A stretch of DNA of 57,371 nucleotides, the filler included, from Dugesia japonica (Eukaryota), in the NCBI GenBank assembly GCA_001938525.1. It is 5 parts of 5 records of this genome, joined end to end, with 100 filler letters (N's around TTAATTAATTAA, not from the genome) between each part and the next. Parts side by side here need not be neighbours in the genome. Positions count along the whole stretch, not along the records: positions 48,724 to 57,371 come from MQRL01609909.1; 4 more parts are not named here. One strand, 5' to 3'. Position 1 is the stretch's first letter, and the number at the start of each line of letters is the position of its first letter. The notes under the pieces are model-generated. The model worked only from the letters and a program-made list of their open reading frames with translations, did no database searches and was not told where the DNA came from. Positions 14,071 through 54,584 of the stretch are shown one piece after another. The position numbers were made by a program, and so were the translations under genes.

Positions 14071-14071
14071 T

Positions 14072-14496
14072 ATAAACTCTTTATTCAAAAATAATCTAGT
14101 TACCAAATATTTTACAGTTTTTAAATAAACATCGATCTTTTCATTTCCACATTTGTAGTTAATGAAATGTTGAAAATCTTTGACATCTTTCTATTATGAC
14201 AACCGTAAACGAACCTGAAACTCGTCAATCTTTTCAACGTCTTGGTACATTCTTCCAGTACATCGTCGTCTAACAAATACGAAATTATTTTTTTATATTG
14301 TTTGTTCTGTGAAATGCGTTTCGCATCAAAATATAATTCACAACGCTTTATGAAATTTTCGACGTCATCACTCCTACAGAATAAATTTGGTAATAATCAT
14401 TTTTGTAATTGCACTGGTATTTACCACTAACACGATGTTAGGAAAATCATTCAAACACAATTTATTTTCAATATTCAAACTTTTAATTTCAGACAT
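14072..14496 (-). mobile_element. gag: Gypsy LTR 3' end plus 5' gag fragment
   Basis: Near-identical inverted copy of 16285-16710. Reads MSEIKSLNIENKLCLNDFPNIVLVVNT..DDVENFIKRCELYFD; homologous to the gag at 53591-54287. Confidence 0.85.
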
Positions 14497-15180: not shown

Positions 15181-15324
15181 ATTTATCAAAACGTTAAAAA
15201 CAGAGGAGAGCTGACATTTGATTATTTATGCTTCCTGGTGACTGCTGCTGGTATAGCAACCTTATCACTGTCTACTAACAACTATGCAGGAATTGTAGCG
15301 AGCATGCTTCTTTCTCCACTTATG
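15181..15324 (+). CDS. DUF389-like membrane protein, internal exon (phase 0-0, 144 nt)
   Basis: ttatttAG|IYQNVKNRGELTFDYLCFLVTAAGIATLSLSTNNYAGIVASMLLSPLM|GTattt; LTFD..ASMLxSPLM is the DUF389-family pattern. Confidence 0.85.
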
Positions 15325-16277: not shown

Positions 16278-17110
16278 AATAAAAATGTCTCAAATTATTA
16301 GTTCAGATATTGAAAATAAATTGCGTTAGAATGATTTTCCTAACATCGTGTTAGTGGTAAAAACCGGTGCAATTACAAAAAGATTATTACCAAATTTATT
16401 CTGTAGGAGTGATGACGTCGAAAATTTCATAAAGCGTTGTGAATTATATTTTGATGCGAAACGCATTTCACAGAACAAACAATATAAAAAAATAATTTCG
16501 TATTTGTTAGACGACGATGTACTGGAAGAATGTACCAAGACGTTGAAAAGATTGACGAGTTTCAGGTTCGTTTACGGTTGTCATAATAGAAAGATGTCAA
16601 AGATTTTCAACATTTCATTAACTACAAATGTGGAAATGAAAAGATCGATGTTTATTTAAAAACTGTAAAATATTTGGTAACTAGATTATTTTCAAAAAAA
16701 GAGTTTATAGAGAAAAAAATGATAGCAAAGGTATTAAGTATTTTGTGCGGATAATAAAAATTGAAAAAGAGATGACTTTGCAGAAACTACAGAATATAGC
16801 AGATTTTGAAGTAACATTGACGTTAGTAAATCGCATAGATGAAAGAAGAGGTCAAGTTAATCCAGTTAGAAGTTACATCAGAATTACAAATCTAGATTAT
16901 CGGAGACTGGTAAATCATACAGTGGATCAAAGGAAAGGGAAACGAAATATCAAAGGCTGATAATGTCATAATGTTGATCATACTAAATGGAATTGTCCAA
17001 CAAAAGAAATATAATTGAGACTATGCAATAATCTAAGTCAGGATGAAACCCGAATCAAAGATAGACATCCAAGCAATATGGCACAGATATGGGTAACCGG
17101 CACTCATTTT
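16278..17110 (+). mobile_element. gag: Gypsy LTR 3' end plus degraded gag
   Basis: MSQIISSDIENK..FPNIVLVVKT..RLLPNLFCRSDDVENFIKRCELYF, then VRSYIRITN..VNHTVD and a decayed CCHC knuckle (CHNVDHTKWNCP); colinear with the gag at 53380-54287. Confidence 0.85.
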
Positions 17111-22659: not shown

Positions 22660-23290
22660 TTACACTAATCTTGTTTTGTTTGCATTAATTTGAATTTCCT
22701 TTTCAAATACCCCATAAATGATAAATTGGAGTATTCATACTGATGATGTTATAGATTTAGCAAACTTGATGTTCAATCTCAAATTTCTTTGTTGAGGTAA
22801 TTGACTCCGATTAAAATCGAAATCCGGAGCAAGAACTAATGTAAAACATGGATATTTAGTTTTAAATTCCTCAAGTGTTATTCCACAATTCAGATTCTTA
22901 TTCAAATAACCCATATTTCGACCAGTAGATTGCACATATGATGTGTTATAATTATTTTGTTCAAAGTCTTGATTATATATTTCATGATAATCAGTGTTTT
23001 TTGCAAAGAAAACGGAAGTAGCATTAAGATGTTGAAATGTTGAACAGGAACTTTTTTAAATATCATTAAATTGATCTCTATTTTGAAAGGCAACTAGAAT
23101 ATAATTAGGTAAACGTCGATCACCAAAGATTTGTTACTTATAAAACGATGAACAATCTTTACTAATTGCAAATGCAAGAATTTCCTTGGTTCTTATTGAA
23201 TAAACTGCATTTTACTTTTTTAATCTCAACTGATTACCCGCCGACACTGAATGCTCAACATGAACACGTGACCATTAATTTTGCATCAAG
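22660..23290 (-). pseudogene. Polinton/adintovirus major capsid protein, C-terminal half (degraded)
   Basis: DAKL..RVHV..NAVYSI..IFGDRRLPNYILVAF..FQH, then CGITLEEFKTKYPCFTLVLAPD..QRNLRLNIKFAK..IIYGVFEKEIQINAN (cf. GI..EF..GY.LF.FDLTPD..GNLRLE.KF..IVY.EF...IEID). Confidence 0.75.
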
Positions 23291-33199: not shown

Positions 33200-34701
33200 G
33201 TTGGTCGAAATGGGATATGGGACGCACTCATTTGGCAAAAGATAGAATAGTGACAAATGAAGACCCAATGAAAGTGAAGCCATATTAAATGTAATGACAA
33301 AGAGACAAGCATTTCCTATGCCGAACATAGATGAGATGGTGGACTCTCTACATACGAATATGTATTTTAGTTCAATTGATTTGACAAATGCATATTATCA
33401 GGTAGAACTTGAAAATGATTCTTTAGAGAAAACAATTTTTTTGACAAAACACAGGCAATAATGTTTTACCCGGATGCTATTTAGAATAGCAGCATCGCCA
33501 GCTACATCACAGGAGATGATGGGGAAAGTAATTAATAACTTGAAGGAAACAATTGTATATCTTGACAAAATATTATTTTTTTCAAAGGAAAAGGCAAACT
33601 ATTAAATTATAGAAGACGAAGTTTTGAAACTGATAATAGATGGGTTGAGAGTTAACCCGGAAAAGTGTGAATGTCTGAAACGAAAAATTAAATTTCTGGG
33701 ACATATTGTAAGTGGAGAAGAAATAAAAATGAATCCCGCCAAAGTCAAGGCTATTAAAGAGTTTGGTTGGTCAAATTTTGTGAAAGAAATGCCCAGTTTT
33801 CTCGGTATATGTAACTACTATCGAAAATTAATTATTGGTNATGCAACTAAAGCATGAAAGCTGGAATAATTTGGTAGCGGTGCAGATAATACGAATCTGA
33901 ACTGGAATGAAGAATTAGAATAATTTTTTCAAGTGTTGAAAGTTGGGCTGATGTTGGCACCAATTTTAGCATTTCCGGACATGAGCAACAAATTCACTTT
34001 AGGTGCAGATGCTAATTTTTATAAAATTGGAGTTATGTTATCCAGATGGACGATTTAGGTAGGTGTAGAGTCATTGTGTATAGATCGCATGGGATGAACA
34101 GCCATGAAAAAGGGTATTGTACCACAAGGAAGGAGTTGATAGCAGTATATTATTTTTGTAATTTATTTAAACATTATCTTTATTGAAAGCGGTTAAGACT
34201 CAGGACGAACCACAAGGCATCAATTTTATGGTGGCAACAAAGAAACCAGTAACTGCACGGTTTCATACGGGGGGGAACTATTTGAGTAGCTTGGATATAG
34301 AATTATTAGGCGGGAAAGGAGAATTGAATAATAATGCAGATATACTGTCACGACATGAGTGTGATAATTTTACTTAGAGTCAGATGTATAATGAAGCAAT
34401 AAACAACACATAGAGTCTAGAAGAACTAATCAATAGGAGATGTATCAGTCGAGAAGTTGTTGGGGAAACATGGTAGAACAAAAGTAGTGAATACAAAATG
34501 AAAAACGTGACTCGTACACACTTTCAGGTGGGAGAATGGGTATTAGCCAGAAGTGAAGGAGTGATAAAAATAAAAAAAAATTCGGACCATATCGATTGAT
34601 ATAAAAGCAACACGAGAGGTGATAAGGGTTACAAGATGAGCAGGGTAAAAAGATAGAAAAAAATGTGGAAAAGTTGAAAATTTTCTTAATGGAGGAGGAT
34701 A
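33200..34701 (+). mobile_element. pol: Ty3/Gypsy pol remnant (RT, RNase H; integrase largely deleted) with PPT
   Basis: KRQAFPMPNIDEM..FSSIDLTNAYYQVEL, IVYLD, GLRVNPEKC..FLGHIVS, FLGICNYYRK, PILAFPD..LGADA, NNNADILSR; PPT GGAGGAGGA at 34691 followed by TG at 34702 (probable 3' LTR start). Confidence 0.9.
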
Positions 34702-36296: not shown

Positions 36297-37344
36297 CTGT
36301 CAACACTCATTAATCCAAAAAATTAGAAATAGATTTCCTTTCCGATTGTGAATTAATTCGGATAATGAAGGAATTTAAAATCTATATGATCGCCAGATTA
36401 ATGATGAAATCATTAAGAAAAAGACAATTATTTATTTAAAAAATCATCTCAAGTTTTTTGTAGAGTTTTCTTTTGAATGAATTTCTGTAAATCAACTTTG
36501 AATTCTTTTAAATTTTTTACTGTATCATTGGTTATTTGTTGAGTAGAGCTGTTTGAAGACGAACTTGCTTTGATGACAATTTCAATTGCATGGAATAAAT
36601 TGCTTGAACTTATGTTGTAACTGTTATCGATCTGACCATCTTCAGCACTAAGTACAACATCTTCAACAGTGTATTCTTCTTGACATGGTGCAATGATTTC
36701 ATCATCATCAATGACTTCTTGTGTTTGAATCATATTCTCTTCAACGATTATTTGGTCAAACTCATTCTTGTGTGTCTCAAGAACGGGATCTGATGACAAG
36801 TTTTCTTCGGCATAAGATCCTGGAATAATCGCAACCTTTTTGAAATAATTTGTGATGGTTTCTTCTTTCACATCTTCCCAAGCTTCATGAAGTATCAATA
36901 TGGCTTTATTAAGATTAACAACAAAGGCTTTTATTTGATCAAGCGAGTTCATGTAATCAACTACCAACTTTTTTCTGTAATAATGCTTGAAATTTTTTAT
37001 TATATCTGCATCCATGGGTTGAAGATGAGCAGTTGAGGTCTTCGGAAGCATTATAACCTTAATGTTCTGAAAATATTTCTTCAAGCTATGACTTGGAGTG
37101 TTATCAAGAAGTAGATAAAATTAAAATTGTAAACAAGTTTAATATTTAAACAACATTAATGAGAAACTTTAAAAAATTATTAGAAACTTAATTCAAAAAA
37201 GAGCCTTCCGATTGCGGATCATGAAGTTTCGGAATAATGAATCAAATTTGTCTGAAAACGTTCGAAAATTGACGAAATAAATAAATATTTTTCGGACTAT
37301 GAAGTTTTCGGATTATTGAAAATCGGATTAATGAGGGTTGACTG
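36297..37344 (-). mobile_element. Internally deleted pogo/Tigger transposon (DDE_1 C-terminal half) with both TIRs and TA TSD
   Basis: TA|CTGTCAACACTCATTAATCC ... GGATTAATGAGGGTTGACTG|TA; LLDNTPSH..LPKTSTAHLQPMDADIIKNFKHYYRK..AWEDVKEETITNYFKK (ORF 36449-37084); repeated TTCGGA-based subterminal motifs. Intronic. Confidence 0.92.
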
Positions 37345-47230: not shown

Positions 47231-49918
47231 AGATAGAGCAATAATTGATTTTCTTATATTTTGAGCTTTTACAAGATTATTATTTAAAANATATTTCTGC
47301 AAAAATCTGTAATTAACACAAACGTTTTTCAAACCAAATTGAAATTTTACTTTAATAATAAAAACGTAAAAGAAATCGTTCAACAGTTTGATTAATTTCA
47401 TTCTCATCTATTTTAATCTAAGCATTTAAAAGAATTAAATCCCTGAATATTGAAAATTATTGTTTTTATTTTCTTTCGTTTGATTAAGTAAAATCTATTA
47501 AAGAAAATCTTTATTAAATCAAATCCACAAAAGGCGACAAAGTATTTCATCAGTTTTCGCAGTTCAAATGTCGATTTTACTCTAAACCACTTGTCTATAA
47601 ATATTTCCTTTAAGATTATTTNATTTATTAAGAAATTGTAAAATGTCTCAAATGATACTTTTAAAGTTAAAAGAAAACTTTATTAAAGAGTACAGAATTA
47701 TAATTCAGAAATCAAAGGAGTAAATTGCATTTAAATCACTAAATGGCTGTCACAACAACGTAGAGTTTAAGTAGAGTTTATCAAATAAATTCTTCGTTTA
47801 TTTATAGATGTATGTTGGGCAAGACTAATTGCCAACAATTATAACCATGATCATAAATCGAAGTCATTAAATGTCCATGAGAATACGATTTCTTAAATTA
47901 ATGTATGCATATGAAATTCGTGTATTAATGCATAATGTATTAATCTTTAGAAATGATATGTCAACAGAAAAAAAGAATTAGAAAATATTGTTTTTTATTA
48001 TCAAGTCATAAAGGAAAATTTGATTATATAAATGGATAAATAGTAGATCAACCAGATGGGTAAATCGCAAAATAAATTTGAAAAACCCCTAGGGTTTCCT
48101 TAAAGTCTCAATTGTAATGTTCAATTTTTTAATATTTCTAATTTAAGGCTATGAAAAATAGAGAATTTCTGAATACATTAAATTTTTAGCTTAAAGAAAC
48201 TTATCTATTGATATATAAAAACAAAGGATTACTGAAAATCTTTTGTATACATCTTGTTTTGTTCTACAAGTATTATGCTATTGTTAAACANTTAATATTC
48301 TATCAATCGAAATTCACGACGAGTTGAGAGATTTTTAGTTGTTTAAATAAATTAAATTAATTATGTATGATTTCTGATTAATTATGAAATTTTATAAGCT
48401 TAAATCATTTTTGGTCAAGACATACGAAATATTGAACAATGTTGTAAAATAATATAAAAACAATTTTGATCTTTGCATATTAAAAGAAAGATTGTGTAAT
48501 GTTATCTATTAACTTAGTAATAAATAATTAAAAACAAATACGAAGTTGATTACTGAATTTAAATTGATTTTAAGATGAATTATAACATTGAGGTCCTAGA
48601 TTTCTTTCTATCCATATGACAAANNNNNNNNNNNNNNNNNNNNNNNNNNNNNNNNNNNNNNNNNNNNTTAATTAATTAANNNNNNNNNNNNNNNNNNNNN
48701 NNNNNNNNNNNNNNNNNNNNNNNAATTATACGATTTAAGAAGAGGAAGACTGTAAATTTATTTTTACAAAGATCCGTTCCTGAACTTCTACAATAGTATT
48801 TCGTAAAACTTATCCTCATTTTTTGAAGTATTAAATACTAAAATAATTCCAATATAACACATTTTGAGTTGATGATAATAGGCGAAAATACTTTTTAATG
48901 GTATCCTAATTAAAGTTCGGTGTACCAACTTTTTACATTTGAAATTAATATACAAAGTATTTGAACCAAAGTTGGATGTACCTGGGGAATATTATTTCAA
49001 CTAAAGTGCAAATACATATAATCTTTTTGTTTTTTATTATATTTGGTTCAATTTAATTTCAATAAATGGTAAATTAAAGTAGAAAGCAGTAAAACGCGAA
49101 TTCTTTATTAGTTATTANNNNNNNNNNNNNNNNNNNNNNNNNNNNNNNNNNNNNNNNGGTATATTTTTAGGCATATTTCTGAAATATAAAATTTGGGCCA
49201 GCACAAATACACACACACAGAAACACAAGCTACGTTGTATGATCACCTTGTTTTTCATCTTCACTATTCTCGTATACGAAATGAGAATTGGGGGAAAAGA
49301 AAATATTTAGTTAGCATATACACAAAGATGTCTTTAGTATTTGAAAACTTTTATTGAGTCCTTAGTCAAAATTTAATTTAAAGTCATTAACCATTTTACA
49401 TAAATTCTACCATTTTTAAAAACGAGAAATTAAAATCATATTGTCCAATTTTTACTACTTTACTAAAATTTTTATTACATCTATTAATATTTACCAGTTT
49501 TTAGATATTTCAATGCGGGCACTTTTAAATTGTCTCGTGGGCACCACGTTGCCGACTCCTTCTTTAAACGAATACAATCAGAAAAGCATGATAAATTTAA
49601 TTTAGAATTCATTTTTGAAATGATATTTTTATTTTAAAACAAATTTCAAATATAAAATTAAAGAAATAAAATTAAACTTTTGTTGATTTAAATAAACATT
49701 TTACAATCAATTGTAAATTAGAATTGTATTAACTAAATTTGGTTATGTATACAAATAAAACTGCAAGTTTGTACCTAGATCAAAGGTTCAATTTCTATTA
49801 TATTTTAACTAGAAAGGAAGAAGTTTACATTAAATCTGACTACACTTATTATTTAATCGATTTATCTCCATAAATACACATGATTATATCAAATCTTTGT
49901 TTTAATTGGTCATTTTTC

Positions 49919-49920
<2 letters not shown>

Positions 49921-49985
<65 letters not shown>

Positions 49986-50035
49986 NNNNNNNNNNNNNNN
50001 NNNNNNNNNNNNNNNNNNNNNNNNNNNNNNNNNNN

Positions 50036-50092
<57 letters not shown>

Positions 50093-50103
50093 GTTATTGT
50101 TAT
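49921..50103. repeat. (ATT)n microsatellite abutting a Gypsy LTR
   Basis: Direct reading. Confidence 0.95.
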
Positions 50104-50291
50104 TGTTAGGTAAATCTTCAAATGGTAATTCATTTTCCAAATCAGAACTAATATTTTGGGACATCATTTATTTTACTACTACAACTCTGCCATTTATAAA
50201 GAATTATCATTGAAAAGAACTGATTGAAACTTAGTACTGAATTAATTCAATTTCTATGGGCTAAAAATATTAAATAAAAATTATTTCCTTA
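50104..50291 (-). repeat. 3' LTR (~188 bp)
   Basis: Matches 54227-54375 with 8 differences in 149 nt by hand count; preceded on the minus strand by PPT AAGAAGGGGAG (50304-50294). Confidence 0.9.
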
Positions 50292-53200
50292 TACTCCCCT
50301 TCTTAAGAAACTTCTAAGTTTTTCCACATTTCNNNNNNNNNNNNNNNNNNNNNNNNNNNNNNNNNNNNNNNNNNNNNNNNNNNNNNNNNNNNNNNNNNNN
50401 NNGATAAAATCCTTCAAATCTGTCTTGACTTTTATTTCTTGTTTCTATCTTAATCAGTACAAAATCGCCCACTTTTTATTCTCTATTTTTATTCTCATCT
50501 GAAGTGTTTTCTTTAGTTTTACCAGAAACTTCTGACTCATACCATTTTTCTCTGCTAATCTTCTTTCCAAATACGATCTCAGCTGGGCTCACTCCAGTCG
50601 TCTTCTGCTTTGTTGCGTTCATTGTAAATTCTATTTCCGGTCTGCCAAAATCTGTTGTCTTTCTTTTCTGAAGTGTTGCATTAATCAAATCTCGAATTGT
50701 CCTGAACTGTGTTTCAATTTGTCCGTTTGCATTATGATGATAGGGACTCGAAAAGCAAAGTTTAATATCTAACTTCAGTTCAAACTCTCTCATAACTTTG
50801 GATTCAAAAGCTTTTCCACAATCGAGTCTTATTTCTCTTGGACATCTAAATCTCAATATCCACTTTTCAAAAATAGCTTTTCGTATTGTTTCCTCGTCTT
50901 GTCTTGTCTCAAGAAACAAATATTTACTGTACAGGTCGATTATTCCAAGAATGTATTTTTTTCATCCACTTGTTTCCAGTATTGGCCTACATATATCTGT
51001 GAATATGACTTCAAACAAATTGGTAGCTTCTAATCTCTTTGTCTTCTCTTTAGTTGCTGTCGTCACTACTTTGATCTTCTGGCAAATTTCACAACTACGA
51101 ACTATTTTTGTATTGGGCTCCACAAATTCTTCGCAATGTATTTCTTTCTCATATATTCGTACACTTTCTCAACTCCTGCATGACATAATAATTTATGTAT
51201 TTCTTCTATTGTCTTATGTATTTTGTCCTCCGAAATTTTTATTTTCTTGATTAAATCTGTGTCCTTAGAAATGTTTAATTGCTCTTGTTTTTCCTTTTCA
51301 ATCATGTTTAGTATTCTCGTTTTAATCTTCCCTTTCTTGGCATCTTCATGTGACTTTAAATATTGTACACATACCTAAAATTTTGGTCTAGATAACATAC
51401 CTTCATTACCATGTTGAATTCTTTTTCTATATTCCAAAACCATGTCTAGACAACTCAGATGATTAATCCATGTCTGCAATTGTGACGTAATTGGTTTCTT
51501 CGTCATCATCATGAAGGTTAGAAATGTTCTGTTATAAAAGTAAATCTTCTACCGTACAAATAGTGTTCAAAGTGCATGCAGAAATAATAATTTATTCGTG
51601 TGATGCAATATCATTTTTCATGACTCGTCATTGAGTGTGATCCATTGACAACAACTCTTTCTCTTCCTTCCTTATCTCTGTGACAATTATTGCTTCTTTT
51701 TTAAACGGATTAGTTCTGACACCATCCTTGCTAATTATGTATCCAAAAATCTTGATTTCGCTTTGAAGACACTGACACTTTTCTGGATTAATTCTTAAAC
51801 CAGCCTTCATTATTTCCATCAATACTCTTTCAATTACTTCATATTATGGATCTTAATTGTTCGTGAATATGAGGATGCCATCAAGATAAACCATGGCTCC
51901 ATTGATTCCGCCTACCACTTTTGTCATCATTTCTAGAAATGTTCCTGATGCCGCTGCGATACCAAATGGCATTCTATTAAAACAATATTGTCCGCGCTTC
52001 ATTGAAAACCCCTTTTTGTCTTGAGATTTTTCTTCGAGCTCTACCTGATAGTATGCATTTCCCAAATCTATTTAACTGAAATATTTGGCTTCATCTAATT
52101 TGTCCAGCATTTTATCGACATTAGGCATATGAAAGGCTTGTCGTTTCATTACAGCATTCAATTGTCTGAAATCCAAACACATTCTTATTTCTTTCTTTTC
52201 CTTGTTCCATACACAGACCAGTGGGGTATTCCATGGAGAGTTTGATTTCCGGATAATATTATTCTTGAAAAGGTTTTGGATAGCTTTTTTAATTTTAGAT
52301 TTTAAGTTTATTGGTTGTCTATATGGTTTTACATTGATTGGTTCACCACTTGTGATTATTTTGTGTCTTATCAGATGTGTNCGCCCTACATCCCATTTAT
52401 CTGCCGTAAAAGCATCTTCTTTACTTTCAATTATTTTCAATAACCGTTGATCCTCTTTAATCATCAAAATATTTAAGGCGCTTGTCAATCGCTCTCCTTT
52501 TTTAATTTTTTATCCGAATTTCACTTCAATATTGCAAATATAATTTTCTACTTTTTCATCNNNNNNNNNNNNNNNNNNNNNNNNNNNNNNNNNNNNNNNN
52601 NNNNNNNNNNTTTTTATCCGAATTTCACTTCAATATTGCAAATATAATTTTCTACTTTTTCATCCGTTTTGCTATCGACCTTTCACATAAGCTGGTATCC
52701 AAAATTCTTCTACATATCTATTCCTCCTATCAGATCTGGTGTTACTCTTTCAGCAACTTTGAACGTATTCTCTTTGCAAACTTCATCAATTATTACTCCG
52801 GTTCTAACTTTTCCAATAATTTCAAGTGTACTATTATTTCCACAACGNAATCTTTTATCACTCATTTCTAAATTTACTTCTCGTAATTTATTAAAACAAC
52901 TCAAACTCATCACGTTAATTCGAACCCCTGTATCTAATAGACATTTTACTTTATTTCTTTGAATTGATACCGTAACACTTGGTCTGCCTTGCAATTTATG
53001 GTACTAAATATTTCTTTTACTATATATATTCTTTTCTGCTTTAACTGTTCCAAACCTTTCTACTTTTCTATCATCCGCAAAACTTTCCTTTTTTAAGAAC
53101 CTGTATACTTTTTCTGCAACTTTCCCGATATCATCCAACTTTTTGACCCGTTGAGGACTAACTTAATTTAACAATGAATGGCTCCAACTAACTCCTCTAC

Positions 53201-54215
53201 TGGTGAAGCCCTGCTTTTTTGGGTACTGTCTTTCGGAATAATTTTCATATACTTCCTCTTATCCATCGTTTATACTGACATCTTCATCTGCTATCGCATG
53301 TACTCGATTATATCGGTTTCTTGATCTTTCTGCAGTCATAAATTTCTGATTTGTTCTTTTCATTTTCAAGTTTGTGTAGCACTCTTCTGCTATATGTCCA
53401 CCATTACCACATCGTTTTCACCTCACTTATTGACATAAGCTTCTAATATGACTAACCTTCCCACATCCAAAACATTTTTTTGGTTTTTTTGGACAATTTT
53501 GACTTATATGTCCTGTTTTTTACAAGTCCAACACTCTACCACTTTTTTGGTCGGACAATTTGCTTTAGTANNNNNNNNNNTATGACATGACTAACATTCG
53601 ATATTTTGTTTTTCCTTTCTTTGCTCCACATGTCTATCCACTGTATGGTTTACCGGTTTCTTATAATTTCGATTTGTAACTCTCGCGTAGCTTCTAACTG
53701 CATCAACTCTATCTCTATTTTTCTCTACTCGATCTACAAACGCCATTGTTTCTTCAATTTCTTTTATATTCCCTCGTTTCCTCAAAGTCACTTCTTCTTC
53801 AACTTTTTTGTTATCTGAATAATATACTTGCATCTTTGCTACCATTTTTTCTACAGTAAAATCTTTACTTGTAAATAATCTTTCCACTAAATCTTTTACA
53901 TTTTTAAAATAAACTTGAATNNNNNNNNNNNNNNNNNNNNNGTTAATCAAATTTTGAAAGTCTTTGATAACACCTTTCTTTTTCTCAAATGCCATACGTA
54001 AACGGGCCTGAAATCCTTCAACTTTTTTCAACGTCTTTGCAGATTTTTCCAACAAATCTTCATCTAACTCAAAAGAGACTTATTTATCTTGTTGTTTCAC
54101 ATAAGTGATGTTTTTAGGTTCAAAATACAATTCACACTGCTTGATGAATTTCTCAATATCATCTCTTTTGCAGAATTCTTTCGGCAATAACCTCTGTAAT
54201 GGAATCGGTATTTAT

Positions 54216-54226
54216 CGCTGCCACCA
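54216..54226 (-). promoter_or_regulatory. Primer binding site, tRNA-Leu type
   Basis: TGGTGGCAGCG directly after the LTR ...CA end; complementary to the ..CGCUGCCA-CCA 3' end of animal tRNA-Leu(AAG/UAG). Confidence 0.8.
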
Positions 54227-54375
54227 TGTTAGGTAAATCTTCAATTGGTAATTCATTTTCCAAATCAGAACTAATAATTTGTGACATCGTTTATTTTACT
54301 GCTACAACTCTGCTATTTATAAATAATTATCATTGAAAAGAACTGATTGAAACTTAGTACTGAATTAACTCAATT
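54227..54375 (-). repeat. 5' LTR (truncated by gap)
   Basis: Direct repeat of 50104-50252. Confidence 0.9.
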
Positions 54376-54584
54376 NNNNNNNNNNNNNNNNNNNNNNNNN
54401 NNNNNNNNNNNNNNNNNNNNNNNNNNNNNNNNNNNNNNNNNNNNNNNNNNNNNNNNNNNNNNNNNNNNNATTATTATTATTATTATTATTATTATTATTT
54501 TGTTTATTGCGAAAATTACACTTTGTGTAATTATTCACTTTTCTAAATTTTTTAACCATGATCAGTGAAATGAAAAAATTAAAT

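Follow-up and report, generated by a model that had tools for sequence, protein, structure and literature searches.

Our analysis of a 57,371-nucleotide stretch of Dugesia japonica DNA (hereafter the window) led us to a reading that we consider likely. In an unnamed clade of Ty3/Gypsy retrotransposons, the end of the LTR and the primer-binding site (PBS) together spell an ATG in the gag frame, and most families have a second ATG 7–22 codons further upstream that is likely translated into a short, acidic tail predicted to be disordered. Comparisons of sequence established the course of the gag frame through the LTR end and the PBS, the presence of both ATGs, conservation across the clade, the acidic bias of the LTR-coded residues and the repeated change of the upstream ATG.

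The element in which this was seen is a decayed Ty3/Gypsy LTR retrotransposon on the minus strand of the window, at 54375-50104 (Table 1). It has two direct LTRs, a PBS and a polypurine tract, as expected of Metaviridae, and the match between its LTRs stops exactly at 54227/50104. Protease, reverse transcriptase (RT) and integrase were located in the window in the order of Metaviridae pol; Ty1/copia membership was ruled out, integrase not being placed before RT. RNase H families were detected in relatives and were not located in the 54-kb copy. The zf-CCHC domain of Gag was found in five of the five relatives scanned. The 3' LTR of the 54-kb copy begins with TA, not TG, and the LTRs of relatives begin with TG. 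With regard to a target-site duplication, both flanks are (AAT)n, and the start of the 5' LTR lies inside a gap. This microsatellite borders the element on both sides (window positions 49920-50103 and 54470-54500).

The window also contained other material. A further decayed copy of the same clade runs from RT to the polypurine tract at 33200-34700 (+). A fragment of a protein-primed type B polymerase (PF03175, E 3e-4) lies at 3774-4046 (+), and a fragment at 22735-23055 (-), which had no Pfam hit, resembles a Polinton-type major capsid protein. Remnants of pogo/Tigger-type transposases with DDE_1 and HTH_Tnp_Tc5 domains were identified at 36449-37120 (-) and 10133-10579 (-). The host DNA is AT-rich, with genes that contain introns. 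A probable host exon with splice sites lies at 15181-15324 (+); it resembles DUF389-type membrane proteins, and a homolog search with this exon found nothing.

Table 1. Features of the 54-kb element and of related copies, in window coordinates.
Feature	Position	Strand	Remarks
5' LTR, visible part	54227..54375	-	141/149 identical to 3' LTR; remainder in N gap
Initiator-like TCAGTT, candidate transcription start	54341..54346	-	57 nt upstream of LTR ATG; consensus TCAKTY from a passage of PMC3601003
TATA-like motif	54314..54321	-	34 nt upstream of LTR ATG; not invariant in family
AATAAA, candidate polyadenylation signal	54290..54295	-	8 nt upstream of LTR ATG; putative function
LTR-internal ATG and 20 LTR-coded codons, in frame with junction ATG	54228..54287	-	same position in 14-, 16- and 50-kb copies
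Junction ATG (last LTR base and first two PBS bases)	54225..54227	-	A at -3, G at +4
Primer-binding site, Leu-type by comparison	54216..54226	-	codes Met-Val-Ala-Ala; 11 letters shared with cestode element primer
Frame exit from gag in 54-kb copy	54191..54193	-	2 nt shorter than many family copies
Gag body, capsid and CCHC knuckles	53168..54193	-	53 phmmer relatives; broken by stops and shifts
Slippery heptamer, probable -1 gag-pol frameshift	53217..53223	-	out of register in 54-kb copy
Pol: protease, reverse transcriptase, integrase	50330..53216	-	Gypsy order; broken; lower end approximate
Polypurine tract	50294..50304	-	by sequence
3' LTR, 190 nt	50104..50293	-	same in-frame ATGs at 50167 and 50164
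Read-out ORF, 3' LTR into (AAT)n	49910..50167	-	crosses 50-N gap 50035-49986; no sign of function
Decayed related copy	16285..17011	+	ATG 20 codons before junction; stop at codon 15; junction ATG lost
Second decayed copy	14071..14496	-	inverted duplicate of 16-kb copy over 333 nt; frame change before RLLP

An earlier note on this DNA had reported that an ATG at 54287 opens a frame coding through the LTR/PBS junction, and we confirmed this on the minus strand. From this ATG it is 60 nt (20 codons) to the final base of the 5' LTR at 54227, and the frame of the 54-kb copy reads MSQIISSDLENELPIEDLPN-MVAAINT through the junction and the PBS. What the note had missed was the constant feature, namely that the junction (54227-54225) is itself a second in-frame ATG. 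The ATGs at 16285 and 14496 are, as had been stated, exactly 20 codons before the homologous junction. The 16-kb frame does continue into RLLP..FIKRCELYF with one stop, which we placed at codon 15, inside the LTR-coded part. Synonymous changes in these diverged copies were present as described, and a clear enrichment of them was not (3 of 9 and 2 of 12 changed codons relative to the 54-kb copy).

In both the 14- and the 16-kb copy the junction ATG is lost and the PBS decayed. In addition, 14071-14403 and 16377-16709 are inverted duplicates of a decayed gag piece, lying 2 kb apart, and because they are 99% identical over 333 nt the two copies are not independent. As duplicates of one another that have lost the junction ATG and carry a stop or a frame change, they are weak witnesses. 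An integrase fragment directly follows gag in the 14-kb copy. The similarity among the window copies was high over the 60 coding nt (z 8.2–13.3) and was no more than background in the 60 nt ahead of them (z -0.1 to 2.1). Compared with the 54-kb copy, the coding values were 10.9 for the 16-kb copy and 8.2 for the 14-kb copy, and the corresponding upstream values were 2.1 and -0.1.

Copies of the host family were examined in four public runs of the host, in which 8809, 8616, 8620 and 1204 contigs matched 53960-54375. The 2-nt deletion that had been noted in the 54-kb copy was borne out, many family copies being 2 nt longer at 54191 (15, 18, 24 and 10 contigs in the four runs), and loose contig ends were found at 54192/54193 (52+78 in X3, 53+76 in X8 and 56+81 in X9). 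Based on the longer contigs and the loose ends, the frame break is particular to the 54-kb copy and other copies are in frame. Within the LTR-coded part (54227-54287) there was no indel at 3%, and at 1% a single contig of depth 2. Loose ends at 54270 and 54280 represented diverged subfamilies that have the ATG at the same position and unlike DNA upstream of it. The LTR ATG was altered in ~4% of the X3 depth, and two positions of the TATA-like motif were changed in ~27% of it. In run X1, which we guessed to be RNA, cover faded upstream of ~54315; run X4 covered the whole stretch, and the ends were loose, so the fading was not taken to mark a start site.

The earlier note had called for a check of codon-level conservation over the last 60 nt of the LTR, and in this check purifying selection was not evident. 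Among the changes listed (40 of 81 rows), 28 fell in codons 1–20; classified by hand, these comprised 7 synonymous changes, 21 non-synonymous changes and 0 stops, as compared with 33, 136 and 11, respectively, of the 180 possible changes. In the host family, amino-acid constraint on the LTR-coded residues is weak.

The gag body, stripped of its N-terminus, was the sole query of a HMMER search that identified 53 relatives with 22–63% identity; a word-index search with the gag piece returned no match. The junction motif (M-A-T/S/N/F, M-S-T or M-V-A-A) was present in the first 60 residues of 40 of the 53, the other 13 being mostly fragments or later gene calls. Seven of the motif-bearing proteins begin at the motif and 33 have 7–35 residues ahead of it, a number that is an upper bound because gene callers may start at non-ATG codons (P0047 versus L005). 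The residue just before the motif in these 33 proteins was N in 26, Y in 4, H in 2 and E in 1, and N, Y and H are as expected from an LTR ending in AACA, TACA or CACA. The closest relative (P0010, 63%) has exactly 20 residues before MVAA, followed by the capsid, all in one ORF. For pol, ~90 relatives without an organism name were 41–67% identical over the RT query, and since organism-named RT hits reached 37% at most the clade was left without a name. The first nine residues of one pol-like protein (P0078) are those of the gag protein P0005, after which it jumps into the protease region. Both are encoded on 4060-nt contigs, and P0078 may represent a copy with an in-frame deletion, a spliced copy or a join made in assembly.

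Loci at the DNA level were obtained by searching metagenomes with the pol alignment, the gag alignment being too diverse for a locus search. This identified 42 loci; a search of viral contigs with the pol alignment gave no match. Among the 24 closest loci, 17 had a gag match and 7 did not; 14 of the 17 hold the gag 5' end and 3 do not, and removal of the duplicates L004 and L020 reduced the 14 to 12 distinct elements. No LTR pairs were found in the more distant loci, L022-L042. The junction was an in-frame ATG in all 12 distinct loci, and a search in all frames found in each of them a single PBS close to the start of gag, immediately behind the LTR end. In every case this ATG had a purine or C/T-A-C context and G at +4. 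A whole LTR (157–264 nt) was visible after the polypurine tract in seven loci, and in L010 and L015 the LTR–LTR repeat ends exactly at the junction.

An in-frame, stop-free ATG was found 5–22 codons upstream of the junction in 8 of the 12 loci, and in 0 and 1 of 12 for the other two frames. The chance rate of such an ATG was 11.8% in shuffled LTRs, and in a separate comparison 109 of 979 sliding positions had one. The excess has a P of ~1.5e-5 if the loci are independent, a value that is optimistic because the proteins had already been seen when the 5–22 codon range was set, and because the loci are related to one another. The four loci without the upstream ATG include L007, which has a 99.4% terminal repeat and open ORFs. 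Several loci have out-of-frame ATGs between the two starts, and AATAAA lies upstream of the candidate ATG in six of the eight tail-bearing loci. The earlier proposal that U5 and the PBS are dual-coding was supported in part, at the level of sequence, in the host family and across a wide clade, with the amendment that the junction ATG is the invariant part (12/12) and the LTR ATG is present in only 8/12.

The two starts need not both be in use. Where an LTR ATG is present it may be the only one used, the junction ATG then being a frozen accident that arose where the LTR end meets the PBS, with no role beyond that of a fallback. First-AUG scanning favours the upstream ATG, and the 14- and 16-kb copies retain the LTR ATG without a junction ATG. 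A frame change across the junction would also need two compensating indels, which could freeze the junction ATG. Against this, the 14- and 16-kb copies are decayed and are not independent, tail-less families have the junction ATG as their first in-frame ATG, and the second stop-free frame across the junction is, to judge from the junction sequences, used in 0 of 12 loci. Sole use of the LTR ATG is a possibility to which we give appreciable weight, short of even.

The LTR-coded tails are not alignable, and their composition is protein-like and acidic (97 D+E versus 17 K+R in 381 residues), whereas the upstream LTR frames contain 68 D+E versus 163 K+R. For the eight tails checked at the DNA level, the ratio of acidic to basic residues was 18:8 in frame and 10:27 off frame (P 0.0017). 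In the structural model of P0003, residues 1–24 mostly have a pLDDT <50 and helices begin from residue 27; dArc, Copia and Ty3 capsids were its top Foldseek matches, none of them at E 0.001 or better. We interpreted the LTR-internal ATG as probably encoding an acidic, disordered tail.

The history of the tail was followed on an unrooted gag tree of 45 rows, aligned from the junction onward, which omits locus duplicates, proteins <220 residues except P0010, motif-less rows, P0040 and L017. The tail label changes four times on this tree, and at least three of the changes are forced by supported branches. For example, L005, with a tail, and L007, with none, are sisters with support of 100/100, and the LTR of L007 has a deletion of ~100 nt. 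The presence of the upstream ATG has therefore changed at least three to four times on the tree.

A second alternative is that the junction ATG alone is used, and that the upstream ATG with its open frame is a by-product of U5 (a polyadenylation downstream element, RNA structure or higher GC) or lies before the start of the RNA. The tail regions are richer in GC, so a lower stop frequency is expected in them. The four loci that do without an upstream ATG, L007 with its open ORFs among them, fit such a reading, as do the sequence context of the junction ATG, which has G at +4 in all 12 loci, and the lack of a synonymous excess in the host family. It accounts poorly for the specificity of both ATG and acidic bias for the gag frame when other frames of the same DNA are compared, or for the similarity of the window copies starting at the ATG. 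The AATAAA upstream of the candidate ATG in tail-bearing loci also counts against it, given that passages on a related Metaviridae clade (PMC3601003) place the U3/R border, and with it the RNA start, upstream of AATAAA. We consider exclusive use of the junction ATG unlikely.

The earlier note had further suggested that 3' and solo LTRs export a start codon into their flanks and so make host-relevant peptides such as poly-Asn. By construction, the ATG is present in every LTR of the family, and the frame that leaves the 3' LTR meets no stop in (AAT)n before the gap. In each DNA run ~190 contigs join the LTR end to varied flanks, and passages of PMC4558846 report solo-LTR fusion transcripts for a cestode element; but poly-Asn depends on the strand and phase of an insertion in a microsatellite, ORF 49910-50167 is arbitrary beyond the gap because it crosses 50 N, and the AATAAA 8 nt upstream of the LTR ATG means that element-initiated RNA probably ends near that ATG, so that we rejected poly-Asn as a functional product and regard such read-out as very improbable.

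In the reading that we prefer, with the upstream start translated where a family has one, the RNA would start in the 5' LTR upstream of AATAAA. Scanning ribosomes would initiate at the LTR ATG, and translation would then cross U5, the end used for integrase attachment and the PBS; where ribosomes pass this ATG by leaky scanning, or where it has been lost, initiation at the junction ATG would yield a shorter Gag. With the TATA-like motif as the promoter, only a few bases of leader would precede the LTR ATG. The tail may be a dispensable acidic linker, and U5 would therefore be free to drift provided that the frame is kept, stops are avoided and acidity is retained.

The residues that follow would be fixed by the primer tRNA, as MAT with a Trp-type PBS and as MVAA in the Leu-type subclade that includes the window copy. 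A cestode element described in passages of PMC4558846 has a Leu-tRNA PBS, and the primer given there for its internal region starts with the 11 letters of the window PBS; 7 of the 12 distinct relatives match the first 11 letters of a Trp PBS in a passage of PMC4724089. There was no tRNA gene in the window. The subclade of the window copy (P0003, P0010 and P0062; support 100/98) has the Leu-type PBS and most other relatives have the Trp type; a swap of primer between Trp and Leu would accordingly be expected to rewrite Gag residues.

The CCA end of the tRNA would pair over the junction AUG, because of which priming and initiation at the junction could not coincide. This suggests a fuller model in which the Gag AUG of the clade is made from the LTR end and the PBS with the primer CCA annealing over it, an optional start in U5 gives long and short forms of Gag, annealing acts as a switch between translation and reverse transcription, and primer swaps rewrite the N-terminus. 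We hold this model, taken as a whole, to be doubtful, and the switch is speculation on our part.

Near the end of gag, all 12 loci tested (L002, L003, L005-L010, L012, L014, L015 and L018) have a slippery heptamer (CCC or GGG, AAA, N), located exactly 49 nt ahead of the gag stop, and a hairpin is predicted to follow it (z -1.0 to -4.0). At the heptamer the -1 frame becomes open, and it extends for at least 167 codons in 11 of these loci. To judge from this arrangement, pol probably follows gag by a -1 frameshift. In Ty1, by comparison, pol is expressed by a +1 shift.

The layout of the leader is like that of Ty1 of S. cerevisiae (Pseudoviridae), in that the gag frame takes its start in the LTR and continues across the PBS. 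According to passages of PMC5454406, Ty1 GAG has its start in the 5' LTR and includes the PBS in its coding region, with a 53-nt 5' UTR, R from nt 241 of the 334-bp LTR and the PBS at RNA nt 95-104. Ty1 differs in belonging to another superfamily, whereas the window element has the order protease-RT-integrase. Moreover, the window clade has an in-frame ATG at the junction itself and can do without the LTR ATG; its primer is of the Trp or Leu type, not initiator Met, and pol is probably reached by a -1 and not a +1 shift. The layout is Ty1-like in an element that belongs to Gypsy, and we see the junction ATG as the sharper finding.

The window clade shares with Ty3 and typical Metaviridae the Gypsy domain order, a CCHC nucleocapsid and an Arc/Ty3-like capsid fold, the last from hits that fell short of the E 0.001 cut. 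The 193-nt 5' UTR of Ty3 puts its gag start after the LTR. That length is given for Ty3 of S. cerevisiae in a passage of PMC11381356, and Diaspora gag starts 873 bp after the LTR according to a passage of PMC1142308, as opposed to a frame that begins at the LTR end in the window clade. The CsRn1 clade (CsRn1, PwRn1 and AgCR) is described in passages of PMC2582038 as having a tRNA-Trp PBS, short LTRs, a length of 4–6 kb, often a -1 gag-pol overlap and a CHCC Gag motif, and these passages make no mention of a start inside the LTR. The short LTRs, the 4–6 kb length and the probable -1 overlap resemble this description, and as to the PBS, a putative Trp type is seen in 7 of 12 distinct relatives and a Leu type in the subclade of the window copy. 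However, CHCC defines CsRn1 and the window clade has several CCHC knuckles with nearly invariant C-C-H-C columns, and we rejected CsRn1 membership on this motif. Membership of Troyka, which has mostly a single Gag-Pol ORF in the passages of PMC12440569, was also rejected, gag and pol being in separate frames here. The passages of PMC7175516 and PMC11410931 contain nothing on start sites. In the literature searched, which excluded Repbase, GyDB and most subscription papers, no Gypsy element was reported to start gag within the LTR or to have it overlap with the PBS, and no description of this family was found. Some Gypsy and BEL elements have ORFs that begin in the LTR.

As a concept, a gag start at the LTR end is already known from Ty1. 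Annotation of Gypsy elements normally assigns no coding role to LTR ends and primer sites, and the Gag N-termini of this clade would be miscalled if ORFs were sought only inside the LTRs. One stretch of sequence would here be an integrase attachment end, a primer site and a start codon, across elements with Gags 22–63% identical to that of the 54-kb copy. With families that have the upstream start and families that do not, and with a swap of primer, the clade may offer a natural series for how translation and priming share one segment of RNA.
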